Counted from the stretch's first letter, positions 3,335 through 24,000 are shown. The stretch is DNA of 24,000 nt from Pseudomonadota bacterium (GCA_041190985.1 JBEEPT010000061.1:20497-44496); one strand, 5' to 3'. A program made the numbers and translations. The notes: generated from the sequence alone by a model not told the origin.

Positions 3335-3413
3335 GGCGGCTTTACGGCCGGGCCCGCGTCGCCAGGCCAGCCAGGCCGGCGGGGCGGTGCCGAAGCGTTA
3401 CCATCTCGACCGT

Positions 3414-7141: not shown

Positions 7142-8669
<1,528 letters not shown>

Positions 8670-8677
<8 letters not shown>

Positions 8678-9134
8678 CGCCGTCCTCAGTCCCGAACAGG
8701 CCCAGGCCCGCGCCGATGCCGCCGCCAACGCCATGTGGTCGCGCGACGCCGCGACCCACGCCCTGGGCATGGAGCTGGTCGAGGTCGCTCCCGGGCGCGC
8801 CACCATGCGCATGCGCGTGCGTCCCGACATGGTCAACGGCCACCACATTTGCCACGGCGGCCTGATCTTCACGCTGGCCGACAGCGCCTTCGCCTACGCC
8901 TGCAACAGCTACAACCTCAGCACGGTCGCCTCGGCCTGCCACATCGACTTCCTGGCGCCGGGACGCGAGGGCGACCTGCTCGAGGCGGTGGCGCTCGAGC
9001 GCTCGGTCGCCGGGCGCACCGGCGTCTACGACGTCACGGTCAGCGTCGTCGGCGGCAAGACCGTCGCGCTGTTCCGCGGCAAGAGCTACCGCATCAAGGG
9101 CGAGGTCACCGCAAGCTTCGCGGCCGAGAGCTGA
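8670..9134 (+). CDS. paaI: Hydroxyphenylacetyl-CoA thioesterase PaaI (hotdog fold)
   Basis: 154 aa. PaaI-type motif MVNGHHICHGGLIFTLADSAFAYACN. The ATG overlaps the paaH stop by 8 nt, which suggests translational coupling. Confidence 0.9.
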
Positions 9135-9184: not shown

Positions 9185-10510
9185 ATGACAAGCAAGCAAG
9201 CCCACCCCGGCGAACTGGACGCGATCGAGACCGCCAGCCGCGACGAGATCTCCGCGCTGCAGCTCGAGCGCCTGAAGTGGTCGCTGCGCCACAGCTACGA
9301 CAACGTCGCGCCCTACCGCGCCAAGTGCGAAGCCAAGGGGGTGCATCCCGACGACCTGCGCACGCTGGCCGACCTGTCCAAGTTCCCCTTCATGACGAAG
9401 ACGGACCTGCGCGACCACTATCCCTTCGGCCTGTTCGCCGTGCCGCGCGAGCGCGTCGCGCGCCTGCACGCCTCCAGCGGCACCACCGGCAAGTCCATCG
9501 TCGTGGGCTACACCCAGCAGGACATCTCCAACTGGGCCGGCCTGGTCGCGCGCTCGCTGCGCGCCGCCGGCGTGCGCCCGGGCGACATGGTGCACAACGC
9601 CTACGGCTACGGCATGTTCACCGGCGGCCTCGGCGCCCACTACGGCATCGAGCGCCTGGGCTGCACCGCGGTGCCGATGTCGGGCGGCCAGACCGAGAAG
9701 CAGGTCCAGCAGATCCTGGACTTCAAGCCCGACGCCATCATGGTCACGCCTTCGTACTCGCTGGTGATCGCCGAGGAGTTCGAGCGCCTGGGCATCGCGC
9801 CCGAGGACATCTCGCTCAAGGTCGGCATCTTCGGCGCCGAGCCCTGGGGCGAGGGCATGCGCGCCGAGATCGAGCGCAAGTTCGGCATCGACGCGATCGA
9901 CATCTACGGCCTGACCGAGGTCATGGGCCCGGGCGTGGCCTGCGAATGCATCGAGACCAAGGACGGCCCGGTGATCTGGGAAGACCATTTCTATCCCGAG
10001 ATCATCGACCCCGACACCGGCGAGGTGCTGCCCGACGGCTCCGAGGGCGAACTGGTCTTCACCTCGCTGACCAAGGAGGCCTTTCCGGTCATCCGCTACC
10101 GCACCCGCGACCTGACCCGCCTGCTGCCGCCGACCTCGCGAGCTTTTCGCCGCATCGGCAAGATCACCGGCAGATCCGACGACATGCTGATCGTGCGCGG
10201 CGTCAACATGTTCCCGACCCAGGTCGAGGAGCAGATCATGCGCGACCCGCGCCTGTCGGGCAACTACCAGATCGTGCTGACGCGCGACGGCCATCTCGAC
10301 AACGTCGAGATCCGCTGCGAGCTGCAGCATGCGCTCAGCGGCAAGCTGCTGCCGGCCGAGCTGCAGCAGATCGCGCGCGAACTGCAGCACCACATCAAGA
10401 CCATCATCGGCATCTCGACCCGGATCAGCGTGCTGGACGCCGACACCCTGCCTCGCACCGTGACCGGCAAGGCCAAGCGCGTGTTCGACGAGCGCCCCAA
10501 GCAGCTCTGA
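9185..10510 (+). CDS. paaK: Phenylacetate-CoA ligase PaaK
   Basis: 441 aa from the ATG at 9185, with GAGGAA at 9175-9180. AMP-forming motif LHASSGTTGKSIVVGYT. PaaK-type N-terminus (DAIETASRDEISALQLERLKWSLRHSY). C-terminal GRSDDMLIVRGVNMFPTQVEE. Confidence 0.93.
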   Translation: MTSKQAHPGELDAIETASRDEISALQLERLKWSLRHSYDNVAPYRAKCEAKGVHPDDLRTLADLSKFPFMTKTDLRDHYPFGLFAVPRERVARLHASSGTTGKSIVVGYTQQDISNWAGLVARSLRAAGVRPGDMVHNAYGYGMFTGGLGAHYGIERLGCTAVPMSGGQTEKQVQQILDFKPDAIMVTPSYSLVIAEEFERLGIAPEDISLKVGIFGAEPWGEGMRAEIERKFGIDAIDIYGLTEVMGPGVACECIETKDGPVIWEDHFYPEIIDPDTGEVLPDGSEGELVFTSLTKEAFPVIRYRTRDLTRLLPPTSRAFRRIGKITGRSDDMLIVRGVNMFPTQVEEQIMRDPRLSGNYQIVLTRDGHLDNVEIRCELQHALSGKLLPAELQQIARELQHHIKTIIGISTRISVLDADTLPRTVTGKAKRVFDERPKQL

Positions 10511-10526
10511 TCCGGGCCTGACCATC

Positions 10527-11309
10527 ATGTACCAGACCCTGAACATGGAGCGCCAAGGCCCGGTCGCCACGATCTGGATGGACCGCCCCGAGGTGTTCAA
10601 CGCCTTCGACGAGCGGCTGATCGCCGAGCTCGCCGCGGCCTGCGCCGAGCTCGACGCCGACGCCTCGGTGCGCGTGGTCGTGCTGGGCGGCCGTGGCCGG
10701 CATTTCTCGGCCGGCGCCGACCTCAACTGGATGCGCCGCGCCTCGACCTTCACCGAGGAGGAGAACCGCGCCGACGCGCGCCGCTTCGCCGGCATGCTGC
10801 GCGCCCTGTCCGGCATGTCCAAGCCCACGATCGCGCGCATCCAGGGCGCTGCGCTTGGCGGCGGCACCGGCCTGGCGGCGGCCTGCGACATGGCGGTGGC
10901 CAGCCGCGATGCCTCGTTCGCGACCTCCGAGGTCAAGTTCGGCATCATCCCGGCGGTCATCAGCCCCTACGTGCTGCGCGCCATCGGGCCGCGCCAGGCG
11001 CTGCGCTACTTCCAGAGCGCCGAGCGCTTCGATGCCCAGCGCGCCTACGAGATCGGCCTGGTCAACGAGGTCTGCGAGCGCGACGAGCTCGACGCGACCG
11101 TCGCCAGGCTGGTCGAACCCTTGATCGCCGGCGCGCCGCAGGCGCAGCAGGCCGCCAAGGACCTGATCGCCGCCATCCACGGCCGTCCGATCGACGACGC
11201 CGTGAGCGAAGAGACCGCGCAGCGCATCGCGCGCCAGCGCGCCACCGACGAGGCCCGCGACGGCATCGCCGCTTTCCTCGACAAGCGCAGCCCAGCCTGG
11301 CTGCCCTGA
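10527..11309 (+). CDS. Crotonase-superfamily enoyl-CoA hydratase, methylglutaconyl-CoA-hydratase-like subfamily; third crotonase of the cluster
   Basis: 260 aa. Oxyanion-hole segments FSAGADLNWM and GAALGGGTGLAAACD. SEVKFGIIPAVISPYV resembles the LiuC/AtuE-type ISPYV signature as I recall it. It is wedged between paaK and paaA with 16-nt and 27-nt gaps. Confidence 0.8.
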   Translation: MYQTLNMERQGPVATIWMDRPEVFNAFDERLIAELAAACAELDADASVRVVVLGGRGRHFSAGADLNWMRRASTFTEEENRADARRFAGMLRALSGMSKPTIARIQGAALGGGTGLAAACDMAVASRDASFATSEVKFGIIPAVISPYVLRAIGPRQALRYFQSAERFDAQRAYEIGLVNEVCERDELDATVARLVEPLIAGAPQAQQAAKDLIAAIHGRPIDDAVSEETAQRIARQRATDEARDGIAAFLDKRSPAWLP

Positions 11310-11336: not shown

Positions 11337-12347
11337 ATGTACACGCAATCCTTCAGCGTATCGGACGAGCCGGGCAAGGCGCTCAAGCCCGTCGCGTCGA
11401 CCGAGCCGGCCGAACATCTGGCCAGGTTCGAGTCCCGCATCGACGCCGACGGCCGCATCGAGCCGCAGGACTGGATGCCCGAGGCCTACCGCAAGACCCT
11501 GGTGCGCCAGATCAGCCAGCACGCGCACAGCGAGATCGTCGGCATGCTGCCCGAGGGCAACTGGATCAGCCGCGCGCCCAGCCTCAAGCGCAAGGCCATC
11601 CTGATCGCCAAGGTGCAGGACGAGGGCGGCCACGGCCTCTACCTGTATTCCGCTGCCGAGACCCTGGGCACCAGCCGCGCCGAGCTGCTCGACGCGCTGC
11701 ATTCCGGCAAGGCCAAGTACAGCTCGATCTTCAACTACCCGACCCTGAACTGGGCCGACGTCGGCGTGATCGGCTGGCTGGTCGACGGCGCCGCGATCAT
11801 GAACCAGGTGCCGCTGTGCCGCTGCAGCTACGGCCCCTACGCACGCGCCATGGTGCGCGTCTGCAAGGAGGAGTCCTTCCACCAGCGCCAGGGCTACGAG
11901 GCCCTGCTGGTGATGATGCGCGGCACCGAGGAGCAGAAGGCCATGGTGCAGGACGCCGTCAACCGCTGGTGGTGGAAATGCCTGGCCATGTTCGGTCCGC
12001 CCGACACCGACAGCCCGCACAGCGCGCAGGGCATGCGCTGGGGCATCAAGCGCATCTCCAACGACGACCTGCGCCAGAAGTTCGTCGACGCGACCGTGCC
12101 GCAGGCCAGGGTGCTGGGCGTGACCCTGCCCGACCCCGACCTGAAGTGGAACGAGGAGCGCGGCCACCACGACTACGGATCGATCGACTGGAACGAGTTC
12201 TGGGACACCGTCAACGGCAACGGTCCCTGCAACAAGGAGCGCCTGGCCACCCGTGTCAAGGCGCACAACGACGGCCAGTGGGTGCGCGACGCCGCCCTGG
12301 CCCACGCCCGCAAACAGCAACAACGTGCAATCAAGGAGGCAGCATGA
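11337..12347 (+). CDS. paaA: 1,2-phenylacetyl-CoA epoxidase catalytic subunit PaaA
   Basis: AGGAGA RBS at 11325-11330. Ferritin-like di-iron ligand motifs ([25 protein letters not shown]). The ORF-track start at 11310 is 9 codons upstream and lacks an RBS. Confidence 0.93.
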
Positions 12348-12640
12348 GCCACGCAGCATTGAAGGATTGGCCCCTCTGGGAAGTTTTTGTCCGCAGCAAG
12401 CAGGGCCTGGAGCACAAGCACTGCGGCAGCCTGCACGCATCCGACGCGCAGCACGCGCTCGAGATGGCGCGCGACGTCTACACCCGCCGCCAGGAAGGCG
12501 TGAGCATCTGGGTCGTGCAGTCGTCCCAGATCACCGCCAGCAACCCGGACGACAAGGGCGAGCTGTTCGAGCCGGCGGCCGACAAGATCTACCGCCATCC
12601 GACCTTCTACGAGATCCCGGAAGAAGTGGGGCACATGTAA
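12344..12640 (+). CDS. paaB: 1,2-phenylacetyl-CoA epoxidase subunit PaaB
   Basis: 98 aa. Shows an ATGA start/stop overlap with paaA and AAGGAGG at 12333-12339. PaaB signature [24 protein letters not shown]...IWVV. Confidence 0.92.
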
Positions 12641-13423
12641 ATGAGCGCAATCGCCAACTACCTGCTGCACCTGGCCGACAACGCCGTGGTGCTGGGCCAG
12701 CGCAACGCCGAATGGTGCGGCCATGGCCCCGTGATCGAGGAAGACATCGCGCTGGCCAACGTCAGCCTGGACCTGATCGGCCAGGCCCGCCTGCTGTACC
12801 AGCAGGCCGCGACCGCGCTCGGCGGCGACGCCACCGAGGACCGGCTGGCCTATTTCCGCGACGTGCCCGACTTCCGCAACTACACGCTGCTGGAGCTGCC
12901 GCATCACGGCGCGCTGGTTGGCTATGCCAAGAGCGACCTCGACTACGGCACCACCATCGTGCGCAACTTCCTCTACAGCGCGCTGATGGTGCTGGTGTGG
13001 GAGCAGTTGCAGCAGTCCCAGGACGAGCAGCTCGCCGCCATCGCCGCCAAGTCGCTCAAGGAAGTGCGCTACCACCTGCGCCACTCGCGCGACTGGCTGG
13101 TGCGCCTGGGCGACGGCACCGATGAGTCGCACGCCCGCGTGCAGGCCGCGCTGGACCACCTGATCCCCTACACGCAGGAATTCTGGACCGCCAGCGAGCT
13201 CGAGTCCGCCGCCGTGGCGGCCGGTGTCGGCGTCGACGTCGCGCTGCTCAAGCCGCAGTGGGACGAGCTGGTCGACGACGCGCTGGCCGAAGCCAGGCTG
13301 GTGCGCCCGGTCGTGGGCGGCCACGTGACCCAGGGCAAGGTTGGCCTGCACTCCGAGCACCTCGGCTTCCTGCTGAGCGAGATGCAGGGGCTGGCCCGCG
13401 CCCATCCCACCGCCACCTGGTAA
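12641..13423 (+). CDS. paaC: 1,2-phenylacetyl-CoA epoxidase structural subunit PaaC
   Basis: 260 aa. The ATG immediately follows the paaB TAA. Helical ferritin-like protein in the canonical paaABCDE position (LLHLADNAVVLGQRNAEWCGHGP). Confidence 0.9.
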   Translation: MSAIANYLLHLADNAVVLGQRNAEWCGHGPVIEEDIALANVSLDLIGQARLLYQQAATALGGDATEDRLAYFRDVPDFRNYTLLELPHHGALVGYAKSDLDYGTTIVRNFLYSALMVLVWEQLQQSQDEQLAAIAAKSLKEVRYHLRHSRDWLVRLGDGTDESHARVQAALDHLIPYTQEFWTASELESAAVAAGVGVDVALLKPQWDELVDDALAEARLVRPVVGGHVTQGKVGLHSEHLGFLLSEMQGLARAHPTATW

Positions 13424-13427
13424 GCGC

Positions 13428-13961
13428 ATGAGTACCACCTTGACGCCCGAAGACGCGGTACGTGCCGCCTGGGCCGCGCTCGAGGTCCTGAGCGACCCCG
13501 AGATCCCGGTCGTGACGCTGCGTGAGCTCGGCATCCTGCGCGACGTGCGCCAGGGCGCCGACGGTCTCGAGGTGGTGATCACGCCGACCTACAGCGGCTG
13601 TCCGGCCATGGGCCAGATCGAGGACGACGTGCGCGCCACGCTGCAGGCCACCGGCCTGCAGGCCAGGGTGATCACCCAGCTCGCGCCGGCCTGGACCACC
13701 GACTGGATGACCGACGCGGCGCGCGACAAGCTGCATGCCTATGGCATCGCTCCGCCGCAGCACCGCTGCGCCAGCCAGCCGCCGACGGGCGAGAGCGTGC
13801 TGCGCTTCGTGCGCCAGGCCGCCCAGCCCGAGATCGTGCCCTGTCCGCATTGCGGCTCCAGCCATACGGTGGAGTCCTCGCATTTCGGCTCCACCGCCTG
13901 CAAGGCGCTCTACAAGTGTCTGGACTGCCAGGAGCCGTTCGACTACTTCAAGCCTTACTAA
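13428..13961 (+). CDS. paaD: Phenylacetate-CoA oxygenase subunit PaaD (DUF59/SufT-like domain plus C-terminal Cys4 ribbon)
   Basis: 177 aa. DPEIPVVTLRELGILRDV...VITPTYSGCPA matches a DUF59-type domain. C-terminal CPHCGS...CLDCQEPF. Starts 4 nt after the paaC stop. Confidence 0.9.
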   Translation: MSTTLTPEDAVRAAWAALEVLSDPEIPVVTLRELGILRDVRQGADGLEVVITPTYSGCPAMGQIEDDVRATLQATGLQARVITQLAPAWTTDWMTDAARDKLHAYGIAPPQHRCASQPPTGESVLRFVRQAAQPEIVPCPHCGSSHTVESSHFGSTACKALYKCLDCQEPFDYFKPY

Positions 13962-13981
13962 GTACTACCGGAGACACCCGC

Positions 13982-15085
13982 ATGTCTGCCCCCCGTTTTC
14001 ATGAGCTCAAGGTCAAGCAAGTCAGCCCGGAAGCGGCTGGCTCGGTGGCCATCACCTTCGACATTCCCGCCCACATGCGCGAGGAGTTCCACTTCGAGCC
14101 GGGCCAGTTCCTGACGCTGCGCGCGCAGATCGACGGCCAGGACGTGCGCCGCAACTACTCGATCAGCAGCCCGCGCAGTCGCCTGCTCAAGGGCGGCGAG
14201 CTCGAGGTCGGCATCCGCCCGGTCGAGGGCGGCCTGTTCTCCAACTGGGCCGCGACCGTGGTCAAGGTCGGCGACAGCCTCAGCGTGCTGCCGCCCGACG
14301 GCCGCTTCACGGTCAGGAAGCCGCGCGCCATCCACCGAGTCGGCTTTGCCGCCGGCTCCGGCATCACGCCCATCCTGTCGATCGCCGCGACCACGCTGGA
14401 AGAGCAGCCCGAGTCCAAGTTCACCCTGGTCTACGGCAACCGCCGCATGTCGAGCGTGATGTTCAACGAGGCGCTGCAGGACCTCAAGGACCGCTACGCC
14501 GGCCGCTTCACCATGATCCACGTGCTGTCGCGCCAGGCCCAGGAAGTCGACCTGCTGCAGGGCCGCATCGACGGCGTCAAGGTGCGCGCCATCATCGACG
14601 CGCTGCTGCCGGCCAGGAGCATGGACGAGGTCTTCATCTGCGGCCCCGAGGCCATGATCGAAGCGACCGAGAAGGCGCTGATCGAAGCCGGCGTACCCGA
14701 GAACCGTGTCCACAGCGAGCGCTTCGCGACCTCGGCGGCGCAGGCGGCCAAGGTGCAGGCCGACACCGACGCCGCCGCCAGCAGGACGGCCGCCGCCAAG
14801 GAGGTGCAGATGACCGTGGTGGTGGACGGCAAGCCATACGACATTCCCGTCAGCCGCGACGAGCACCTGCTCGACGCCGCGCTCGGCGCCGGCCTCGACC
14901 TGCCGTTCTCCTGCAAGGCCGGTGTCTGCTGCACCTGCCGCTGCAAGGTGGTCGAGGGCAGCGCCGTCATGGACAAGAACTTCACGCTCGAGGCCGACGA
15001 GGTTGCGCAAGGCTATGTGCTGAGCTGTCAAGCGCGCGCCGCCGCCAACACCATGAAACTGGTGATCAGCTTCGACGAGCGTTGA
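13982..15085 (+). CDS. paaE: Phenylacetyl-CoA epoxidase reductase subunit PaaE (FNR-like FAD/NAD domains plus plant-type [2Fe-2S] ferredoxin)
   Basis: 367 aa from the ATG at 13982, with GGAGA at 13970-13974. RNYSISS FAD motif, GSGITPILS NAD(P) motif, and C-terminal CKAGVCCTCRCKV...LSCQ cluster ligands. Confidence 0.93.
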   Translation: MSAPRFHELKVKQVSPEAAGSVAITFDIPAHMREEFHFEPGQFLTLRAQIDGQDVRRNYSISSPRSRLLKGGELEVGIRPVEGGLFSNWAATVVKVGDSLSVLPPDGRFTVRKPRAIHRVGFAAGSGITPILSIAATTLEEQPESKFTLVYGNRRMSSVMFNEALQDLKDRYAGRFTMIHVLSRQAQEVDLLQGRIDGVKVRAIIDALLPARSMDEVFICGPEAMIEATEKALIEAGVPENRVHSERFATSAAQAAKVQADTDAAASRTAAAKEVQMTVVVDGKPYDIPVSRDEHLLDAALGAGLDLPFSCKAGVCCTCRCKVVEGSAVMDKNFTLEADEVAQGYVLSCQARAAANTMKLVISFDER

Positions 15086-15087
15086 TC
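14987..15087 (+). repeat. Direct repeat, left copy: functional 3' end of paaE (last 32 codons, stop codon and 2 nt)
   Basis: Matches 17820-17920. There are about 12 mismatches in 101 nt by eye, and 4 in the last 77 nt. See the findings. Confidence 0.9.
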
Positions 15088-15136
15088 CCGGGGCCCCTGT
15101 GCCGGCCAACAGACACATTGACATAGGAGACAACAA

Positions 15137-17731
15137 TTGCGCCCCTCTTTTTCCACCCCGTTTTATCCAAAATCTGGGGCCAGACCCTTGCGCCACATGC
15201 TGACGGCCAGCGGCCTGGCACTGAGCCTGCTCGCACCGCTCACGGCCGTAGCGAAGGAGCCCCCGGCCAAGTCGCTGCGCAGCGGCCAAGTGCGGATTCT
15301 GCGTGATGCCCACGGCATGCCCCATGTCTATGCCAGCACCACATCGGACCTGTTCTACGGCTACGGTTACGCTGTGGCGCAGGACCGGCTGTTCCAGATG
15401 GAAATGGCGCGGCGCAGTACCCAGGGCAAGGTGGCTGCCGTGCTCGGTGAAAAGTTCGTCGCCTTCGACCGCAGCATCCGCGGCAACTTTTCGCCCGAGC
15501 GCATCCAGGCCCAACTTGATGCCCTGCCGCGTGCCGAGCGCGACATCCTGGGCGGCTATGCCGCGGGCATGAATGCCTGGATCGCCCAGGTGCGCCGCGA
15601 GCCCGCCAAGTTGATGCCCAAGCAGTTCACCGAGCTGGGCTTCGAGCCCGCCGACTGGACGGCTTACGACGTCGCGATGATCTTCGTCGGCACCATGGCC
15701 AATCGCTTTTCCGACATGAACGGCGAAATCGACAACCTGGCCCTGCTGACCGCGCTGGATGAACGCCATGGCCGCGATACCGCCTGGCAGATCTTCAATC
15801 AGCTCAAGTGGCAGGTCGATCCCAAGGCGCCGACGACGGTGGCGCCAGAGGAGGGCAGCTACCAGCACACGCCCGTGCCGGCCGAACGCTCGCTGGCCTA
15901 CGCCTTGCCGCGCTATGACGGCACGCCGCCGATGTTGGAGCGCCTGGCTCTCGACCCCGCCGACCGCAGCCTGCTCGATGCCACGCCGCAGGGCAACCGC
16001 AGCGCCTTGCTGGCCCAGATCGAAGCCACCGGGGTGCAAGGCAGCGCCGGCTTCCCGACCACCAGCAATATGTGGATCGTCGGTCGCGACAAGGCGCGCG
16101 GCGCCAAATCCATCCTTGTCAACGGTCCGCAGTTCGGCTGGTTTGCGCCAGCCTACACCTATGGCATCGGCCTGCATGGCGCGGGCTTCGACATCGTCGG
16201 CAACACGCCGTTCGCCTATCCCTGCATCCTGTTCGGCCACAACGGCCGCATCAGCTGGGGCTCCACCGCCGGCGTCGGCGATGGCGTGGATATCTTTGCC
16301 GAGAAGCTCGATCCTGCCGACAGCACCCGCTACTGGCATGACGGCCAGTGGAAGCGCATGGAAAAGCGCAGCGAGACCATCGAGATCAAGGGCAGTGCGC
16401 CGGTGACGCTGGACGTCTACCGCACCGTGCATGGCCTGGTCACCAAGGTCGACGCCAAGAACGGCGTGGCCTATGCCAAGGCCCGCACCTGGGAAGGCTT
16501 CGAGATCCAGTCGCTGCTGGCCTGGACCCACAAGGGCCAGGCGCGCAACTGGAACGAGTGGAAGGCCCAGGCGGAGCGCCACGCCCTGACCATCAACTGG
16601 TACTACACCGACCGCGAAGGCAATATCGGCTACGCCCACACCGGCTTCTACCCACAGCGCCGCCCGGGCCATGACCCGCGACTGCCGGTGACGGGCACCG
16701 GCGAGATGGACTGGCTGGGCCGCCTGCCCTTTGCCAGCAACCCGCAGGTCTACAACCCGCGCCAGGGCTACATCGCCAACTGGAACAACTCGCCGATGAA
16801 GGGCTATCCCTCCACCGACCTGTTCGCGGTGATGTGGACCCAGTCGGATCGCCTGACCGAGCTTGAAGCCCGCCTGCGCGAGAAGCTGCAGCGCGATGGC
16901 GGCATCGACGCCGACGGCATGTGGTCGCTGCTCAAGCCCACCAGCCTGGCCGATGTCAACCTGCGCCATTTCCTGCCCTTTCTGCAGCGCGCCGTCGCCA
17001 CCCTGCCGGCCGACGACCCGCGGGCCCGCCGCGTGGCCTGGCTGGCCAAGTGGAACGGCATGAACAGCGACGAACAAGGGCGCGGCAGCTATGACCACGC
17101 CGGTGGCGCCCTGCTTGACGCCTGGCTGCGTGCCATGCTCAAGGCCACTCTGGCGCAAGACCTGCCTGGCGATTTCTTCAAGTGGTATGCCTCGGCCGGC
17201 TATGCCACCCCGGCGGCGCCCAACGGCGGGTCGGTCAATGTCTCGCCGGGCGGCAAGGTGCTGTTCAATGTGCTGGCGGGCGCTGCCGCGGGCGTCCCGC
17301 AAAAGCACGATTTCCTGCACGGCCGGCCCCAGGCCGAGGTGGTGCTGGAGGCACTCGATGCCGCCTGGGCCGAGCTGAGCCCGCGCTATGGCGAGGACCT
17401 CGACGCCTGGCGCGTGCCGGTGGCGCCGCTGGCGTTCATGAGCAACAACTTCTTCGGCGTGCCGCAAGGCAGTGCCGACGAGGCGCGCCGCGTTGCCGTG
17501 ACCATGAACCGAGGCACCGAGAACAACATGACCGTGTTCACCGACCGGGGCGTGCGTGCCTTCGACGTGGTGGCGCCCGGCCAGAGCGGCTTCATCGCTC
17601 CGGACGGAACCGCCTCGCCCCATGCCCGCGACCAGTTCGACCTCTACGTCAACTTCGGCAACAAACCCGTCTGGTTCACCGACAAAGAGGTACAGCGCAA
17701 CAGCAGCAGCGTCCTGCGCCTGCAGCGTTAA
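15137..17731 (+). CDS. pac: Penicillin G acylase homolog (Ntn-hydrolase, peptidase S45), periplasmic precursor
   Basis: Strong collinearity with E. coli PGA around the beta-chain N-terminus: TTSNMWIVGRDKARGAKSILVNGPQFGWFAPAYTYGIGLHGAGFDIVGNTPFAYPCILFGHNGRISWGSTAG. The nucleophile Ser codon is at 16064-16066. The beta chain from this Ser is 555 aa, which is the expected length. Signal peptide LALSLLAPLTAVA|KEP. The TTG start at 15137 is favoured over the ATG at 15197 for two reasons: AGGAGA lies 6 nt upstream, and only the longer form gives a positively charged n-region. Confidence 0.9.
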   Translation: MRPSFSTPFYPKSGARPLRHMLTASGLALSLLAPLTAVAKEPPAKSLRSGQVRILRDAHGMPHVYASTTSDLFYGYGYAVAQDRLFQMEMARRSTQGKVAAVLGEKFVAFDRSIRGNFSPERIQAQLDALPRAERDILGGYAAGMNAWIAQVRREPAKLMPKQFTELGFEPADWTAYDVAMIFVGTMANRFSDMNGEIDNLALLTALDERHGRDTAWQIFNQLKWQVDPKAPTTVAPEEGSYQHTPVPAERSLAYALPRYDGTPPMLERLALDPADRSLLDATPQGNRSALLAQIEATGVQGSAGFPTTSNMWIVGRDKARGAKSILVNGPQFGWFAPAYTYGIGLHGAGFDIVGNTPFAYPCILFGHNGRISWGSTAGVGDGVDIFAEKLDPADSTRYWHDGQWKRMEKRSETIEIKGSAPVTLDVYRTVHGLVTKVDAKNGVAYAKARTWEGFEIQSLLAWTHKGQARNWNEWKAQAERHALTINWYYTDREGNIGYAHTGFYPQRRPGHDPRLPVTGTGEMDWLGRLPFASNPQVYNPRQGYIANWNNSPMKGYPSTDLFAVMWTQSDRLTELEARLREKLQRDGGIDADGMWSLLKPTSLADVNLRHFLPFLQRAVATLPADDPRARRVAWLAKWNGMNSDEQGRGSYDHAGGALLDAWLRAMLKATLAQDLPGDFFKWYASAGYATPAAPNGGSVNVSPGGKVLFNVLAGAAAGVPQKHDFLHGRPQAEVVLEALDAAWAELSPRYGEDLDAWRVPVAPLAFMSNNFFGVPQGSADEARRVAVTMNRGTENNMTVFTDRGVRAFDVVAPGQSGFIAPDGTASPHARDQFDLYVNFGNKPVWFTDKEVQRNSSSVLRLQR

Positions 17732-17819
17732 CCGGCCCTCCGCCCTTCATCTTCTTCGTTATGGTCTGCATCCGCTCGAGCTCGTTGAGCAGAGGCGGTT
17801 CATTTCCTGAACCCCCGCG

Positions 17820-17918
17820 CTGGAAGCGGGTGAAGTGGCGCAGGGCTACGTGCCGAGCTGTCAGGCGCGCGCCGCCGCCAACACCATGAAACTGGTGATC
17901 AGCTGCGACGAGCGTTGA
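17820..17918 (+). pseudogene. Relic of a paaE 3' end (direct repeat, right copy); no start, in-frame TGA just upstream
   Basis: Encodes LEAGEVAQGYVPSCQARAAANTMKLVISCDER*, against paaE LEADEVAQGYVLSCQARAAANTMKLVISFDER*. It is preceded by an in-frame TGA at 17808-17810 and by unrelated sequence. Confidence 0.85.
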
Positions 17919-18027
17919 TCGGCCGCCCGCCGGCAGCGGGCGCTTGACCTCGAAATGACGGCCGCCCGCTTGGGCCGGAAGCTGTTCCGGCTACAGTGAG
18001 GCGGTCGCATTCACATCAGAGATACCC

Positions 18028-18810
18028 ATGTCTTCTTCCCCCGAATTTATCCAGGTTCGCACCGAAGGCCGCGTCGGCCTGGTCACGCTCAACCGTCCCA
18101 AGCAGCTCAACGCGCTCAACGACCAGCTGGTCGACGAACTGGTCGCGGCGCTCAAGGCCTTCGATGCCGACGACCAGATCGGCTGCATGATCGTCACCGG
18201 CAGCGAGAAGGCCTTCGCGGCCGGCGCCGACATCGGCGCCATGGCCAGCTACGGCTTCGCCGATGTCTACAAGGACGACTACATCACGCGCAACTGGGAC
18301 GCCATTCGCAGCGTGCGCAAGCCCGTGATCGCCGCGGTCAGCGGCTTCGCGCTCGGTGGCGGCTGCGAGCTCGCCATGCTGTGCGACTTCATCATCGCGG
18401 CCGACAACGCCCGCTTCGGCCAGCCCGAGATCAAGCTGGCCGTGATCCCGGGCGCCGGCGGCACCCAGCGCCTGCCGCGCGCGGTGGGCAAGTCCAAGGC
18501 CATGGACATGGTGCTGACCGGCCGCATGATGGACGCGCAGGAAGCGGAGCGCGCCGGCCTGGTCAGCCGCGTGGTGGCGCTCGACAAGCTGATGGACGAG
18601 GCGCTGGGCGCGGCGCTGACGATCTGCAATTACTCGCTGCCCAGCGTGATGGCGGCCAAGGAATCGGTCAACCGCGCCTTCGAGGGCACGCTGGCCGATG
18701 GCGTGATGTTCGAGCGTCGTCTGTTCCACGCGCTGTTCGCGACCGCCGACCAGAAGGAGGGCATGGCCGCCTTCGTCGAGAAGCGGCCGGCCGCCTTCCG
18801 GCATTGCTGA
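18028..18810 (+). CDS. paaF: 2,3-dehydroadipyl-CoA hydratase PaaF (short-chain enoyl-CoA hydratase type)
   Basis: 260 aa. Collinear with E. coli PaaF: LNRPKQLNALN, AFAAGADI, AAVSGFALGGGCELAMLCDF, FGQPEIKLAVIPGAGGTQRLPRAVGKSKAMDMVLTG, EGMAAFVEKR. A generic fatty-acid ECH cannot be excluded by eye. Confidence 0.85.
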   Translation: MSSSPEFIQVRTEGRVGLVTLNRPKQLNALNDQLVDELVAALKAFDADDQIGCMIVTGSEKAFAAGADIGAMASYGFADVYKDDYITRNWDAIRSVRKPVIAAVSGFALGGGCELAMLCDFIIAADNARFGQPEIKLAVIPGAGGTQRLPRAVGKSKAMDMVLTGRMMDAQEAERAGLVSRVVALDKLMDEALGAALTICNYSLPSVMAAKESVNRAFEGTLADGVMFERRLFHALFATADQKEGMAAFVEKRPAAFRHC

Positions 18811-18851
18811 TGTCCGGCGCGGGCGCCGGCCAGGACTGAGGGAGGACCAAG

Positions 18852-19496
18852 GTGTACGGCATCACCGATCTCGCGACCTTCGTCCTCGGCACCATCTTCA
18901 TCGTCCTGTTGCCGGGGCCGAACTCGCTCTTCGTCATGACCCTCGCCTCGCGCCTGGGCGTGGCGACCGGCTATCGCGGCGCGGCCGGCATCTTCGCCGG
19001 CGACACGGTGCTGATGGTGCTGTCGGCCGCGGGCGCCGCCTCGCTGCTGCGCAGCACGCCCGTGCTGTTCCTGGGCTTCAAGTACGCGGGCGCGCTCTAT
19101 CTGGCCTGGCTCGGGCTGGGCATGGTGCGCTCGGCGCGGCGCGTCTGGCGTGCCGGCGTGTCAGCGGCCGAGTCCGGCCTGTCCGCTGGCGCGAGCCGGC
19201 CCTTTCGCACCGCCTTGCTCATCAGCCTGATGAACCCCAAGGCGATCCTGTTCTTCGTCTCCTTCTTCATCCAGTTCGTCTCGCCCGACTACCCGCATCC
19301 GGCGCTGTCCTTCCTGCTGCTCGGCCTGATCGTGCAGGTCTGCAGCGCCCTCTACCTGAGCGCGCTGATCTTCGGCGGTGCCGGACTGGCACGCCAGTTC
19401 CGCCAGCACAGCCGGCTCTCGGCGCTGGCCATGGGCGGCATGGGGGCGTTGTTCATCGGCTTCGGCGTCAGGCTGGTCGGGGCGTCGCTGGCCTGA
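18852..19496 (+). CDS. LysE/RhtB-family amino-acid exporter (LeuE-like)
   Basis: 214 aa. GTG start with GAGGGAGGA at 18838-18846. N-terminal FIVLLPGPNSLFV motif and about 6 predicted TM segments. Resembles E. coli LeuE at the N-terminus. Confidence 0.85.
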   Translation: MYGITDLATFVLGTIFIVLLPGPNSLFVMTLASRLGVATGYRGAAGIFAGDTVLMVLSAAGAASLLRSTPVLFLGFKYAGALYLAWLGLGMVRSARRVWRAGVSAAESGLSAGASRPFRTALLISLMNPKAILFFVSFFIQFVSPDYPHPALSFLLLGLIVQVCSALYLSALIFGGAGLARQFRQHSRLSALAMGGMGALFIGFGVRLVGASLA

Positions 19497-19546
19497 GCGG
19501 CCGCTGCCGGCCCTGCCGGGCAGGCGGCGGCTGCGTGCATACTGGC

Positions 19547-19601
19547 GTCCTGTTTCCGTCCTGTTTCCGTCCTGTTTCCGTCCTGTTTCCGTCCTGTTTC
19601 C
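19547..19601. repeat. Perfect tandem repeat, 5 x 11 bp (GTCCTGTTTCC)
   Basis: Read directly from the sequence: five identical units with no mismatches. The array ends 3 nt before the ATG at 19605 and starts 50 nt after the LysE-family stop. Confidence 0.98.
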
Positions 19602-19604
19602 GAC

Positions 19605-20138
19605 ATGCCTGCCAGTCCAGCCCCGCATCCGAACCCGCCACCGCGTGGCCCCCGTCTTGTCAGCGCCTGGTGGCGTGCGCTCGCCATCGCCCTGCTGCTT
19701 GTGCTGCTGGTCGGCGCGGCGGCCAGCCTCAGCATGCTCGAGCAGCTCAGGGCCCAGATCGGGCATCTGCAGTCCAGGCTGGTGCAGCTGCCCCGGATCC
19801 GCCAGCTCGCGGTCCTGCTCGACCAGGCGCAGCGGCCGGCCCTGCTCGTCACGCATGACCCGGCCAGCGGCGTGCTGCAGCTGCAGCGGCTCAACGAGGT
19901 GAAGGAGGGCCGGGAGGACAGCCTGCAGCTGTGGGCGCTGGCCGAGGGCCAGCCGCCGCGCTCGCTCGGCGTGATCACCAGCCACTACAAGACCTCGCAG
20001 CTGCCGGTGGCGGCTGCCGCCTTGGCCGGCGTGGCGGAGCTGGCCATCAGCGTCGAGGACAAGGGCGGCGCTGCCGGGGGCCGGGGCCCCCGCCTGCCTT
20101 ATCTGTTCCGGGGCTGGCTGGTCGTCAAGGCGATCTGA
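19605..20138 (+). CDS. Single-pass membrane protein with RskA-like (anti-sigma-K C-terminal) extracytoplasmic domain; no N-terminal anti-sigma domain
   Basis: 177 aa. Pro-rich 20-aa N-terminus, then a TM segment (WWRALAIALLLVLLVGAAASL), then LQLWAL..GQPPRSLGVI...LAISVEDKGG. I recognise the last as the RskA C-terminal pattern. No Shine-Dalgarno element is visible upstream. Confidence 0.6.
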   Translation: MPASPAPHPNPPPRGPRLVSAWWRALAIALLLVLLVGAAASLSMLEQLRAQIGHLQSRLVQLPRIRQLAVLLDQAQRPALLVTHDPASGVLQLQRLNEVKEGREDSLQLWALAEGQPPRSLGVITSHYKTSQLPVAAAALAGVAELAISVEDKGGAAGGRGPRLPYLFRGWLVVKAI

Positions 20139-20189
20139 GCCCGGCTCGTGCTGCCGTGCGCTCGTTACCGCCGCAGCCCGCGGCCACGT

Positions 20190-20678
20190 TCAGGACCGCA
20201 CTGCAGGCAAGGCCGCTGCCGCAGCCTTGGCCGCTTTGGCTGCCCTGGGTGCCCGTGCGGGCTGGCGCGTCGGCGGCCACTGCGAGAACGCCACGGGCTG
20301 CGCGCGCGTGCTCGCGCCTGCCCATTCCTTGGCCTTGCACATGTCGGTGAACCTCATCACCGGATAGGCCAGCTGACCCGTGGCGAGCAGCCTATCGGTC
20401 AGGGTCTTGACCGCTGGCAGGCTGGCGACCAGGGCATGGCGGAATTCGTACGCCTGCGCGATGTGGGCCGCATTGCCCGTGAACTGCTCCGCAGACAGCG
20501 ACTCGGCGTCGAGCAGGGCCCGGCAGTCGCGAAAGTCGTCGATGATGAAGCGGGCCTGCGCCAGCCGGCGGTCCGACTGTATTTCCCGATTCGAGCCCAG
20601 CAACTGGGCCACGCTGACAGTACCTATGTGCCACCGGACTATGCCGTCATCCATCCAGACATGCTCGATCACGCTCAC
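20190..20678 (-). CDS. Hypothetical protein; weak resemblance to small STAS/SpoIIAA-like (DUF3478-type) proteins, with an Ala/Lys/Pro-rich tail
   Basis: 162-aa ORF. GTG starts at 20678 or 20672, with GGGAGG just upstream. The first ~120 aa have a globular composition (VIEHVWMDDGIVRWHIGTV...RFIIDDFRDC...VMRFTDMCKAKEW). The last ~40 aa are low complexity. The STAS-like idea rests on pattern memory only. Confidence 0.5.
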   Translation of the reverse strand: MSVIEHVWMDDGIVRWHIGTVSVAQLLGSNREIQSDRRLAQARFIIDDFRDCRALLDAESLSAEQFTGNAAHIAQAYEFRHALVASLPAVKTLTDRLLATGQLAYPVMRFTDMCKAKEWAGASTRAQPVAFSQWPPTRQPARAPRAAKAAKAAAAALPAVRS

Positions 20679-20840
20679 CTCCCTTGGTTATTCTTTTCAC
20701 CAGCAGACTTGCGCTGCCCTAGCTTTTAGTCAACTTGGTCATGATATGAAACGATAGAAATACCGTCAACATCCTTCCCCAAATTTGTGCTTGATGGGGG
20801 AGGTTGAAGTTCTTCATCCCGGATGTTGCTGCTTCGTCCG

Positions 20841-20854
20841 GCCTGGATCCAGGC
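20841..20854. repeat. 14-bp perfect palindrome GCCTGGATCCAGGC; shares a 13-mer with 21741-21753
   Basis: Read directly. Lies in the non-coding segment downstream of the cytochrome c gene. Confidence 0.9.
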
Positions 20855-21061
20855 GGAATGCGGGTCCGAGATAGCGCTGGCATGGGAACGCAGACGGGTC
20901 ACCACCAAGACTAACCCATAGACGTGGTGCGGGTAGCGAGGCGAGGGCGGTAAGGCCCCGGCTGCTGGCACGTGGCGCAGCCGCGTGCATGAAACTGCGC
21001 AGGCCTGGCTAGGGAATGCCGGCTGCGCTGTGGAACGTGCCGCGTCGCAGGCCAGGCTCGA

Positions 21062-21589
21062 TCAGTGGGCCGGCTGGCCGGGACCCTGGCTGCCGCTGGC
21101 GCGTGCCGACAGATAGGCGTAGAGGTCCATGATATGGGCGCTCACGCCCGGATCTTCGCGCCAACTCGGCATGATCATGGGGCTTTCCTGGCGCTTGAGG
21201 ATCTGCTCGGTACGTGCCTCGGCGGGCAAGCCATAACTGCGCCTCACGGCGGCCAGTTCCCAGTCATAGCGCCTGAGCACGCTATCGACGAAACGAGGGG
21301 GCACCATGCCACCCATGCGCGCCACCAGGTCGGGTCCGCTTTTGGTGCCGGTGGCGTCCGGACCGTGGCAGCGGGCACATTTGTCCTGGAAGGCGCGCCA
21401 GCCCAGGTAGACCTCGCTCGCTGGCGTCGTGGCCCCCGAAGCCGGCTGGGTGCCGCGCTCGCTCGCCGGTTCGCTGGCGCAGCCGGCGCTCAGGAGCAGC
21501 AACAACGCCGAGATCGCGGCCAGTGCGGGGAGCGTGCGTCGGGGCAGGGCGTCAGGCCACGCGGCGGTGGCCGAGGAAGCGACCTTCAT
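21062..21589 (-). CDS. Lipoprotein c-type cytochrome (single heme, class I-like)
   Basis: 175 aa from the ATG at 21589, with AAGGAGA 5 nt upstream. The ORF-track start at 21667 has no RBS. Lipobox LLLLSAG|C, heme motif CARCH, and a likely distal Met in PMIMPSW. Confidence 0.8.
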   Translation of the reverse strand: MKVASSATAAWPDALPRRTLPALAAISALLLLLSAGCASEPASERGTQPASGATTPASEVYLGWRAFQDKCARCHGPDATGTKSGPDLVARMGGMVPPRFVDSVLRRYDWELAAVRRSYGLPAEARTEQILKRQESPMIMPSWREDPGVSAHIMDLYAYLSARASGSQGPGQPAH

Positions 21590-21740
21590 GCTGATCTCCT
21601 TCTGGCGGGCAGGCGCGGAGCCGGAATTCGCGCATTGGGCTATCAACCCGTCTTGTGCATTCTCCATGACTGTCCCGGGTGCGGCAAGCCATGTTGAAGC
21701 GAAAATATCATTTCATCTTCAGTTGCTACTTGCTCAGCCT

Positions 21741-21753
21741 GCCTGGATCCAGG
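21741..21753. repeat. Second copy of GCCTGGATCCAGG, followed by T6
   Basis: Read directly. Lies exactly 900 bp from the first copy and about 150 nt upstream of the cytochrome c start on the - strand. Confidence 0.9.
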
Positions 21754-21886
21754 TTTTTTGATGACGTTGTCGAACTGGTATTCACTCCGAGTACGATGTG
21801 CAATGCACTGCAAGTCTGCCTTCCCCTGAGCGGTGAATCGCTGGGAAGCGCCAGCGTTGGAGACTTGAAATATGCACGTTCCAGTG

Positions 21887-23167
21887 TCAGGTGAGTCGGA
21901 GGTCCACTATCAGTCGGTCTGCCACCGCTTCCTCTGCGATGGCCAGTCCGTGCCGATACATCGCTGGAGCGAGTTGCGGATCCCAGTCGGCTGTGAGGTC
22001 CGAGGCGCCCAGGTCGCGCTGTCTGGGCGGAGTGTTTTGCACAGCGGTTTCGTAGTCCTGAGTACTCATTTTCCAGGGCTGTGCTCGCCAGCTGCGCAAT
22101 ACATGGTTGGCGATCTGCAGGCCGGGCCAGTCAAAATCGCCGTGGTAGTGCAGGTGGGCATCGGCTCTTGCCAGTTGATTGAGCAATGTGCGTTGTGCCG
22201 CCGCCGGCATGCCGTCGGTGCAAACGAGGGGTGCGCAGCGTGCGCCCAGACGGTCAGCTGCGATGGCCAGGAGGTTGGGGTTTTCGCAGACATAGATGGG
22301 CAGGCCTTCGACAGCCCATGTGGGTGGCCGGCGCAGCAGCTGGCGTAGCGACAGGTAGGTGGGTTCACCCGGGGTGGCCGGTACCGTCGCGAGCGACGGC
22401 AGGTTCAGCACCAGCACGGGCCGCGCCAGTTCGTTCACCAAGACACCGGCGCGAGCCCAGATGTCGCGTACACGCTCTTTGTCCGTCCGCGCTTTGCTGT
22501 CTATTGATATATCGAATTCAGACTCCAAGGCCATGCCAAGGCTGGAGGGTGCGATCGTGGCCTCGCCGTGGCACCATGCGGCCAGCACCAGGCTGGCCAC
22601 GGGCCGGCCCGCATCGAGCGCATGGGCATTGCCGAGAACCTCTGCCGCCAGTTGCGAGCGGGCAAGGCCCGGCGCAGGCAGGTGGCGCAAAACGGCATAG
22701 GCTTGTGCCAGCAAGGTTTCGGCGGTCGTGGCGTCTCGTCGGGCCAGGCGCTTGACCAAGGCTCTGGCGGCGGGTGTTTGCAGCCAGTCTTGCAGACGTG
22801 GGTCGCGGTCCGGCCGCTGGGTCACGGTCGACCATGCCGCCTCGGCGGCCGTGCGCAGGGCGACGCGGTTCGTGATGGGGCCGTCCAGCCGTTCGAGCGC
22901 ATCGCGCAAGGAGTCGCACAGGCCCGCGGCCCGCAAGGCAGCGTCGATGTTGGCAATGTCGATGCGGGCCGAACGTGCTGTGCGGGAAGAGCGGCCGGTC
23001 AGTAAGGCGAGCGCCTCGTGTTCAGCAGGATCGAGCTGGCTGAGGTGTAGCACCCGGCCCTCTTCTTCCCCGTTCTGCCGCTCGAAGTGGCGCCGCAGGC
23101 GCTGGCGCAGAGTTGCCAAGGCGGGGCTGCCCAGCAGGCGTTCGAGGCGTGCGTCGGAACTGTTCAT
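21887..23167 (-). CDS. jetD: Wadjet system protein JetD (TIGR02679/DUF2399-like, C-terminal Toprim nuclease domain)
   Basis: 426 aa from the ATG at 23167, which forms an ATGA overlap with the jetC stop. N-terminus LERLLGSPALATLRQRLRRHFE...LHLSQLDPAEHEALALLTG. C-terminal Toprim-like motifs: IYVCENPN (Glu codon 22283-22285) and HYHGDFDWPG (DFD codons 22130-22138). The first 126 codons of the ORF-track entry overlap jetC and are rejected. Confidence 0.8.
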   Translation of the reverse strand: MNSSDARLERLLGSPALATLRQRLRRHFERQNGEEEGRVLHLSQLDPAEHEALALLTGRSSRTARSARIDIANIDAALRAAGLCDSLRDALERLDGPITNRVALRTAAEAAWSTVTQRPDRDPRLQDWLQTPAARALVKRLARRDATTAETLLAQAYAVLRHLPAPGLARSQLAAEVLGNAHALDAGRPVASLVLAAWCHGEATIAPSSLGMALESEFDISIDSKARTDKERVRDIWARAGVLVNELARPVLVLNLPSLATVPATPGEPTYLSLRQLLRRPPTWAVEGLPIYVCENPNLLAIAADRLGARCAPLVCTDGMPAAAQRTLLNQLARADAHLHYHGDFDWPGLQIANHVLRSWRAQPWKMSTQDYETAVQNTPPRQRDLGASDLTADWDPQLAPAMYRHGLAIAEEAVADRLIVDLRLT

Positions 23168-24000
23168 TCGATTGGTGGAAAGCGGCGGTCCGGATCGGCT
23201 TCGCGCCGCCGAGCGCGGCCGTCCCAGGTCCAGCGGGAGACATGCACGGCGTCGATTCCTTCGCGTCGCTGCAATTGCACGATGGCCACGCCGGGCAACG
23301 CGGCATAGCAGGCCCATTCGCGTTCGCTGGTGATGACGAAGTCGAGGTCGAATTCCCGGATCAGCGCCATGCAGTGGGCTCGGGCGGCGTCGTCGATGCC
23401 GGCGAAGGCTTCGTCCAGCAGTACCAGGCGTGGAGCGTGGGCGGTGTCGGCCTGGCTGTAGTAGCTGGAAACGGCGGCAAACAGGGGCACGGTGAGTCCC
23501 AGTGCCCGCTCGCCGCTGGAGGCGGGGCCGGCGAGCGGGCGCCATTGCCCGTCTTGCCAGCGCTGCACGCGAAAGCGGTGCCAGCGGCGGTAGTCGAGGG
23601 CTCGCGCGAGCTGTTCCTGCAGGCTACCGCCTTGGTCGGCATCGGCGCGACTGCGTTCGGCGGCAATGCGCTGCTGCAGCATTTCGCCGACCACGCGGCG
23701 GTCTTCAGCGGTCCACAAGTCGGCGCTGGTGTTGAGCAGCCGGCGCCGCGCCGCCTCCAAGCCGACAGGTGCGCCTTCCGCGCCTTCGGTTAGGGTCTGC
23801 CATTGCAGCCGGAAGCGCACGCCGGTGGAGGTCGGGCGCTTTTCCAGTTCGGCGTTGATGGCGTTGATTTGGCGCTCGGCATCGCGCAGCAGTTTCTGCA
23901 CGGCGTTGGCGATCTCGGCCTGCAGGTGGTTTTCCAGCACCTCGCGCTCGCCGGCAGTCAGCAGTTCGCGGCGTTGTGCGATTTCTCCGGCCAAGCGCAG
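23164..24000 (-). CDS. jetC: Wadjet SMC-like ATPase JetC, C-terminal ~278 codons only (gene continues beyond the window)
   Basis: Coiled-coil-like segment (LENHLQAEIANAVQKLLRDAERQINAINAELEK), then the ABC/SMC C-terminal head with Walker B/D-loop (PRLVLLDEAFAGIDD) and LDFVITSEREW. The frame stays open to nt 24000. Confidence 0.8.
   Translation of the reverse strand: MRLAGEIAQRRELLTAGEREVLENHLQAEIANAVQKLLRDAERQINAINAELEKRPTSTGVRFRLQWQTLTEGAEGAPVGLEAARRRLLNTSADLWTAEDRRVVGEMLQQRIAAERSRADADQGGSLQEQLARALDYRRWHRFRVQRWQDGQWRPLAGPASSGERALGLTVPLFAAVSSYYSQADTAHAPRLVLLDEAFAGIDDAARAHCMALIREFDLDFVITSEREWACYAALPGVAIVQLQRREGIDAVHVSRWTWDGRARRREADPDRRFPPIE

Follow-up and report, generated by a model that had tools for sequence, protein, structure and literature searches.

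A penicillin G acylase gene inserted into a phenylacetate operon between paaE and paaF and flanked by a second, dead copy of the paaE 3' end

The stretch of DNA analysed here (24,000 nucleotides, positions 20497–44496 of contig JBEEPT010000061.1, GCA_041190985.1; hereafter the window) originates from a high-GC Burkholderiales metagenome-assembled genome (MAG) from freshwater and carries a paa (phenylacetate) gene cluster on its + strand. Within this cluster, pac, a gene for a predicted penicillin G acylase, is placed between paaE and a paaF-like enoyl-CoA hydratase gene, and the 3' end of paaE is found twice, once as the end of the intact gene (the live tail) and again as a relic between pac and paaF (Table 1). 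The net gain at the insertion is 2833 nt and takes in pac together with 49 nt on its upstream side and 85 nt on its downstream side. An original prediction for this locus regarded pac as a foreign insertion which had recombined within paaE and pushed the native paaE tail downstream.

The pac product matched solved penicillin G acylases over both the alpha and beta chains (7reo, E = 1e-279; 1gk9_B, E = 8e-202; 1e3a_A, E = 1e-83). It is 100% identical to a protein of the MAG Pseudomonadota bacterium RJA36_767, and the domain PF01804 (Penicil_amidase; peptidase S45) is precomputed for P0001, a protein identical to the pac product. The nucleophile serine of the beta-chain is present (TTS310NMWIVG), residue 1 of the PDB beta-chain being aligned to query residue 310. 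By its domain, its chains and the SNM motif, pac is thus predicted to encode an Ntn-hydrolase of the penicillin G acylase type, the nearest homologues of which are merely 70–76% identical. A ribosome-binding site (RBS), AGGAGA at 15125–15130, lies 6 nt ahead of the TTG start. The start itself is ambiguous, as TTG 15137 has the strong RBS and yields a 39-residue leader with basic residues, whereas the public annotation starts the gene at ATG 15197 (844 aa, with a leader of 19 residues and no charge); within the gene, the G+C content at third codon positions (GC3) is lowest, at 0.75, in the first 72 codons. Over its whole length pac has a GC3 of 0.866, compared with 0.937 in 15 neighbouring genes (Fisher p = 1.5e-11), and the greater use of A/T-ending codons that had been noticed by eye was confirmed in every two-fold family tested but Cys (n = 1), for instance with TTT (21 vs 6%), TAT (43 vs 14%) and AAT (20 vs 4%).

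pac is the sole coding-like open reading frame (ORF) in 15088–17816. For the spacer upstream of it (15088–15136), no match in any fetched locus and no hairpin beyond chance was detected. Likewise, no significant match to the segment downstream of it (17732–17816) was obtained by six-frame translation or by comparison with the downstream sequences of other pac genes, with the C-terminus of the convergent Achromobacter ABC gene and with the fetched loci. No promoter-like sites were found in the added DNA, and the only terminator-like site on the + strand lies inside pac, with none in the spacers flanking the gene.

The duplicated paaE tail was the top family in a repeat search of 13000–19500 (14985–15087 vs 17818–17920, 103 nt, 88% identical, spacing 2833). 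When aligned by codons, 14984–15087 and 17817–17920 differ at 13 of 104 nt and share a longest exact run of 40 nt, and the probability of at least 91 of 104 matches arising by chance anywhere in the window is ~1e-27. The new DNA is thus flanked by a direct repeat of the 3' end of the upstream gene, as in a 3'-end-displacement scar. For 14987–15087 and its repeat at 17820–17920, about 12 mismatches with 4 in the last 77 nt had originally been given, and we likewise counted 12, with those 4 at 15016, 15021, 15031 and 15072. The relic frame, which reads TPALEAGEVAQGYVPSCQARAAANTMKLVISCDER, has the in-frame TGA at 17808–17810 and lacks a start codon, as had been described, and its own stop (17916–18) is indeed followed by a 109-bp spacer before the paaF ATG at 18028. 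The peptides encoded are ALEAGEVAQGYVPSCQARAAANTMKLVISCDER in the relic and TLEADEVAQGYVLSCQARAAANTMKLVISFDER in the live gene. The three amino-acid changes reported for the relic (D to G, L to P and F to C) are all present, but the count is four in 33 codons, as a T-to-A codon sits just beyond the 32 codons considered earlier.

A scan of a genome collection with PaaE returned 80 loci at 71–94% identity, the nearest being from Malikia, Burkholderiales and Comamonadaceae MAGs, and pac was found 3' of paaE in 0/80 of them. As outgroups for the tails we used eight pac-less loci (L006–L009, L171, L174, L176 and L177) whose PaaE proteins are 86–94% identical to that of the window; they represent six lineages, as the PaaE of L174 is the same as that of L007, and L176 and L177 share one PaaE. 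L174, L176 and L177 were fetched via homologous proteins, and the L006 contig ends ~290 nt past paaE. All outgroups but L006 (seven loci) have the order paaE, a spacer of 90–104 nt, and the paaF hydratase gene, and BLASTN collinearity of the window with L006–L009 stops at 15087–15092 and restarts exactly at 17818. The ancestral order paaE-spacer-paaF, originally deduced from the window, is therefore seen in pac-less relatives, whose spacer architecture also matches that of 17919–18027, and pac emerges as a lineage-specific insertion. A duplicated paaE tail in relatives without pac had been named in advance as evidence against such an insertion; it was present in no relative. As had also been noted, neither a transposase nor an integrase is encoded in the added DNA, and terminal inverted repeats are absent from it. 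A transposon, insertion sequence, integron or integrative element was accordingly rejected, the repeat itself being 104 nt of coding sequence. Taken together, the pac-less synteny, the atypical composition of pac and the lack of mobile-element features support well the view that pac was added between paaE and paaF by recombination.

Comparison of the spacer in the window (17919–18027) with those of L008 (11084–11195) and L007 (7864–7975) revealed a conserved two-hairpin structure, with z-scores of −2.3 in the window and of −3.2 and −4.2 in L007 and L008, respectively. A U-run follows the long hairpin in the relatives, giving it the look of an intrinsic terminator or attenuator placed between paaE and paaF. 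The window keeps both hairpins, with compensatory changes, but has lost the U-run (GGCGGUCGCAUUCAC). On the question whether foreign sequence reaches farther to the right, the window spacer is the most divergent in the alignment (50–54% vs 55–85% identity), other intergenic stretches being too short for a calibration of this value. The divergence of paaF between the window and L008/L009 equals that between L008 and L009 and is thus normal. In the outgroup locus L171, paaE has an in-frame TAG at 214–216 where its relatives have GAG, and the gene caller has split off a 38-aa ‘protein’ that is the paaE tail; this TAG reflects a sequencing error or else a nonsense allele.

Per 102 nt, the tails of the relatives differ from one another at 0–7 positions, the live tail differs from them at 13–15 and the relic at 19–23. 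When the 13 differences between the two copies were polarised by the relatives, the derived state fell to the relic at 10 and to the live tail at 2, and at 1 position both copies differed from the relatives. Nine further derived states are common to both copies, all of them in 15028–15082 and 0 in the first 44 nt (Fisher p = 0.009), and the relic-specific changes cluster in 14984–15021 (max-chi2 breakpoint, permutation p = 0.003). The live tail shows 2–3 differences from the relatives in its first 44 nt and 10–13 in its last 58 nt: 38 nt (14984–15021) are native-type, 15028–15087 is of a divergent type which we designate X, and the switch lies within 15022–15027. The first 38 nt of the relic differ from the relatives at 9–10 sites, mostly synonymous. 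Along paaE, the ratio of window-to-relative to relative-to-relative divergence was 0.7–1.7 in ten 33-codon segments and 2.95 in the last. At the protein level, the close PaaE homologues examined (86–94% identical) all end in AAADT[MI]KLVLSFDHR, whereas both window copies have AAANTMKLVIS.DER; GCGCTGGAAGCGGGTGAAGTGGCGCAGGGCTAC and CAACACCATGAAACTGGTGATCAGCTTCGACGAGCGT are example k-mers of the X-type tail.

These comparisons contradict the assignment made in the original prediction, namely that the functional tail is foreign and the relic native, since the relic is the copy farther from the relatives, most of the differences between the copies are derived in it, and the live copy is native-type over its first 38 nt. 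What stands of that proposal is the involvement of a foreign-type paaE tail; the relic, which carries all nine shared derived states, does not qualify as the native one. The related argument that the synonymous differences point one way did not hold either, as TAT in the live copy is ancestral in all relatives, and two GAG codons and one GAC codon of the live copy correspond to GAA and GGT, respectively, in the relic. Nor is the relic set apart by the GC3 style of the neighbouring paa genes, the GC3 of the two 33-codon tails being about equal (26/33 vs 27/33) and that of the relatives 0.91.

Against the consensus of the relatives the relic has 20 differences, of which 13 fall on third codon positions (p = 0.004), without any indel or stop in its 33 codons. 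This bias indicates that X-type sequence diverged while it belonged to a working gene. The variant residues A, G, N, I and E of the relic are also found in functional PaaEs from other lineages (NFAL, EAGE, VISFDER), and X looks like the end of a functional paaE of another lineage. The donor would be a related one, since X shares a two-residue-longer tail found only in this clade. The L-to-P and F-to-C changes would then be later lesions of the dead copy.

The explanation that we favour, with about even confidence, is that a single foreign but related paaE tail is present in both copies, in full in the relic and over the final ~60 nt in live paaE, with a crossover at 15022–15027. That pac was acquired by homology-dependent recombination at the paaE 3' end of a Comamonadaceae-type paa operon, without a mobile element, we regard as shown; the X-type tail at both ends of the added DNA would derive from a different but related operon. 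The resulting pattern, native / X ... pac ... X / spacer, implies that the incoming DNA was terminally redundant for the foreign tail. One source of such redundancy might be a circular ‘paaE-tail + pac’ intermediate of which more than a single turn was copied or integrated. Alternatively, the donor may have been a relative that already had a paaE-pac-tail arrangement, in which case an in-register crossover inside the paaE tail would have formed the left side and a join at or past the stop of the tail the right side. Following the event, paaE would remain intact with three residue changes (D to N, L to I and H to E), and pac, equipped with its own RBS, would be read through from the paa promoter. 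The acylase, which is predicted to be periplasmic, would then free phenylacetate from phenylacetylated amides or esters and supply it to the pathway encoded by the operon itself.

Several observations weigh against this explanation. The statistics rest on 13–20 substitutions in ~100 nt, and the homology available for the left crossover is only ~60 nt at ~85% identity, which is short for a RecA-type exchange. The left copy and the 5' part of the right copy fit the reciprocal chimera expected of a Campbell integration, but a simple event of this kind expects a native-type 3' half in the relic, which was not observed. An extra assumption is therefore needed, be it copying of more than one turn, a donor with the repeat, or gene conversion. 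No donor of the X tail was found in the 177 fetched loci; blastn-short searches with the tails, flanks and spacer found the known relatives only. The one candidate obtained in a search with a 47-aa repaired-relic peptide was rejected, being a paaE tail of the ordinary kind on a contig that carries an internal stop codon. Finally, the data come from a metagenome assembly, and its consensus may be strain-chimeric. As an extension, ‘paaE tail + pac’ might be a homology-targeted cassette, freed as a circle by recombination between its flanking repeats and re-entering at paaE 3' ends. If so, the acylase would spread among paa operons, always landing just past paaE and without a dedicated recombinase; the terminal redundancy seen here would be accounted for, and so might the occurrence of pac homologues of 75–76% identity directly after a paaE of 43% identity. 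We consider such a cassette improbable.

The main rival is a duplication of the native tail in situ at insertion, followed by neutral decay and by gene conversion, which would have homogenised the 3' 60–80 nt and carried decayed states into the live gene. Gene conversion is common between direct repeats 2.8 kb apart, the two copies are mutually closest in 15028–15087 (3 differences), and the shared derived states would be explained without a second donor. However, neutral decay should affect the codon positions equally, and the third-position bias of the relic, with its lack of indels and stops, is left unexplained; the same bias rules out neutral decay of the native tail as the sole explanation. 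Moreover, the double-nucleotide changes CTG to ATC and CAC to GAG reach residues that are typical of working PaaEs elsewhere, and a decay of ~20% equals or exceeds the divergence from relatives that never had pac. We therefore regard this rival as doubtful. The displacement model of the original prediction, in which a foreign ‘paaE tail + pac’ crossed over inside paaE and was joined illegitimately, at its far end, upstream of the native tail, relies on a documented mechanism (PMC5361080, PMC3240628). It agrees with the anomalous divergence and lower GC3 of the last ~60 nt of the live tail (0.76–0.79 vs 0.91 in the relatives) and with the continuity of the relic with the ancestral spacer and paaF. 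It nevertheless appears unlikely, as the displaced fragment does not behave as the former 3' end of the recipient: it is farther from the eight relative loci than the live copy (19–23 vs 13–15 differences, with 0–7 among the relatives), 10/13 differences are derived in it, it holds all nine states that give the live tail its foreign look, and 9–10 mostly synonymous differences in its first 38 nt are not expected of a native tail. By contrast, the attached copy does agree with a donor-type sequence 3' of the crossover, being native to 15021 and divergent from 15028 (ratio 2.95).

That pac was ancestral to the clade and lost in the relatives is very improbable, even though deletion between the 104-nt direct repeats would be scarless and restore a clean paaE-spacer-paaF order. 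The paaE of the window nests among the relatives (92–94% with L006/L007, 86–88% with L008/L009), so that several losses would be required; a tail rebuilt from the window repeats would bear X states, of which there are none in the relatives; and the composition of pac is atypical. We give equally little credence to an assembly artefact, whether a chimera of strains or a mis-join at the repeat. In its favour, the sequence comes from a metagenome-assembled genome, and the switch from native to X in the live tail could be a switch of the consensus between strains. However, a single contig carries both copies, separated by 2.8 kb and with no more than 40 nt of exact identity, the relic 3' of pac must exist in some real genome, and a second public contig (JGI metagenome, 12,440 nt, with different ends) is 100% identical over 11582–24000.

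Adjacency of paaE and pac, for which a search had been proposed with possible donors in mind, does exist elsewhere: the closest pac homologues (75–76%; L002, L166–168) lie directly 3' of paaE. The L166-type paaE is only 43% identical to that of the window, and its pac is followed by a gene with an N-terminus of 43 residues that we read as PaaZ-like, with no relic. A pac homologue at 70% and the Achromobacter penicillin G acylases (P0006–P0031), the closest named homologues at 68%, are not in paa clusters; unlike the paa-embedded pac of the window, the Achromobacter genes adjoin LysR regulators and an ABC transporter. A tblastn search of plasmids with pac gave nothing above 54%, and a metagenome scan gave no pac nearer than 68%. 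Penicillin-acylase-family genes with 38–62% identity to the window pac stand beside paa genes in many metagenome contigs (L097, L118, L119, L120, L127, L129, L131, L149, L151, L156, L159, L162, L163 and L165) in varying positions (paaN-paaX-pac, paaI-pac-paaK, pac-paaK and pac-paaA), which suggests repeated independent recruitment.

According to passages in PMC9493321 and PMC2265553, pac of Escherichia coli W is controlled by PaaX, which binds the promoter of the acylase gene itself (Galan et al., 2004), and is thereby tied to the paa regulon as a scavenger of phenylacetylated compounds. The window pac belongs to the same family (53–54% identity to the enterobacterial enzymes, with 1gk9 matched over both chains) and would follow the same functional logic, i.e. 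scavenging for the paa pathway. In those passages the link is regulatory, whereas the window pac is located physically between paaE and paaF and lacks a promoter-like site. The scar itself resembles the displacement of Rhs C-termini, which proceeds via a circular intermediate (Jackson et al., 2009, PMC2935791): new DNA comes joined to a piece of a conserved upstream gene in which homologous recombination takes place, a dissociated 3' fragment remains downstream, giving direct repeats of the 3' part of the gene, and donors are limited to related sequences. Unlike in Rhs, the gene concerned encodes a metabolic reductase subunit, the cargo is a complete separate gene and not an alternative C-terminus, and there is a single displaced fragment, which is not the tail of the recipient itself. 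Homology-facilitated illegitimate recombination (de Vries and Wackernagel, 2002; Meier and Wackernagel, 2003, as cited in PMC5361080; PMC3240628) and the displacement of type VI secretion system effector-immunity genes in Vibrio (PMC5361080) are, as outlined in these sources, similar in that one homologous anchor in a conserved upstream gene brings in non-homologous cargo and older sequence is shifted downstream. They differ in that the shifted fragment here is not native and no illegitimate junction with microhomology is definable.

The gene order of the window (Table 1) was built from NCBIfam matches, a GC3 frame plot and the gene table of a public contig with identical sequence. The PaaABCDE epoxidase is co-encoded with PaaG, PaaK, PaaI, PaaN and PaaX, as in a paa catabolic operon; PaaA, PaaC and PaaD exceeded the NCBIfam cut-offs, and PaaB was taken from the gene table. 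PaaE scored slightly under the cut-off of its NCBIfam model PA_CoA_Oxy5 (416.4 vs 420.8 bits), and its N-terminus, MSAPRFHELKV, agrees with those of its homologues. The hydratase at 18028–18810 reached 451 bits with PRK05862 (cut-off 396) and 289 bits with the PaaF model. The paaH-sized gene is merged by the ORF listing into a 1356-aa ORF from 4607, as its frame is open across paaN and paaG. paaX has a GC3 of 0.86, which is low like that of pac and far under that of the other paa genes (0.91–0.96). Towards the end of the window, two genes on the − strand encode JetD (21887–23167) and the C-terminal part of JetC (23164–23994) of a type II Wadjet anti-plasmid system (PADLOC matches JetD2, E = 4e-140, and JetC2, E = 2.5e-119), with a GC3 of 0.69–0.79, under that of the paa genes. 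Between an anti-sigma-like gene and the Wadjet genes, the GC content falls from ~0.70 to 0.57–0.585 at 20400–21000. Two − strand ORFs (20190–20678 and 21062–21667) had no PADLOC family match, and the former also had no NCBIfam family match.

Table 1. Features of the window in map order. X-type denotes the divergent paaE tail described in the text.
Feature	Position	Strand	Remarks
IclR- and MarR-type regulators, then FAD monooxygenase	5' of paaX		
paaX	3387–4376	+	NCBIfam equivalog above cut-off
paaN	4656–6323	+	NCBIfam equivalog above cut-off
paaG	6339–7139	+	NCBIfam equivalog above cut-off
paaH-sized coding frame	about 7142–8677	+	GC3 frame plot (frame 2) only
paaI	8670–9134	+	NCBIfam equivalog above cut-off
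paaK	about 9227–10510	+	NCBIfam equivalog above cut-off
Enoyl-CoA hydratase	10527–11309	+	3' of paaK
paaA, paaB, paaC, paaD	between the hydratase ending at 11309 and paaE	+	
paaE	13982–15085	+	367 aa, ATG 13982; intact; 3' end apparently chimeric
Repeat copy 1 (last 33 codons, stop and 2 nt of live paaE)	14984–15087	+	
New spacer	15088–15136	+	49 nt; contains RBS AGGAGA
pac, penicillin G acylase precursor (predicted)	15137–17731	+	864 aa from TTG 15137
Anonymous segment 3' of pac	17732–17816	+	85 nt; includes TGA 17808–17810
Repeat copy 2 (dead paaE tail)	17817–17920	+	no start codon, upstream stop; X-type throughout
Ancestral paaE-paaF spacer, two hairpins	17919–18027	+	alignable blocks with relatives
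paaF-like enoyl-CoA hydratase	18028–18810	+	ATG 18028; native
LeuE-type exporter	3' of the 18028–18810 hydratase		

The locus adds one more example to a type of scar that is already known, 3'-end displacement or homology-facilitated recombination, and as operon remodelling it is clear-cut but fairly ordinary. In scars of this type the native copy is not necessarily the dead one, so that outgroups are needed to assign polarity. In practical terms the consequences are modest; both the class of mechanism and the link between pac and paa are already known. The locus nevertheless offers a natural example of a catabolic operon that would have gained an upstream ‘feeder’ enzyme without a mobile element, with a scar that is still readable and pac-less relatives available for comparison, and the presence of a penicillin G acylase gene physically within the paa operon fits a role in the scavenging of phenylacetylated compounds.

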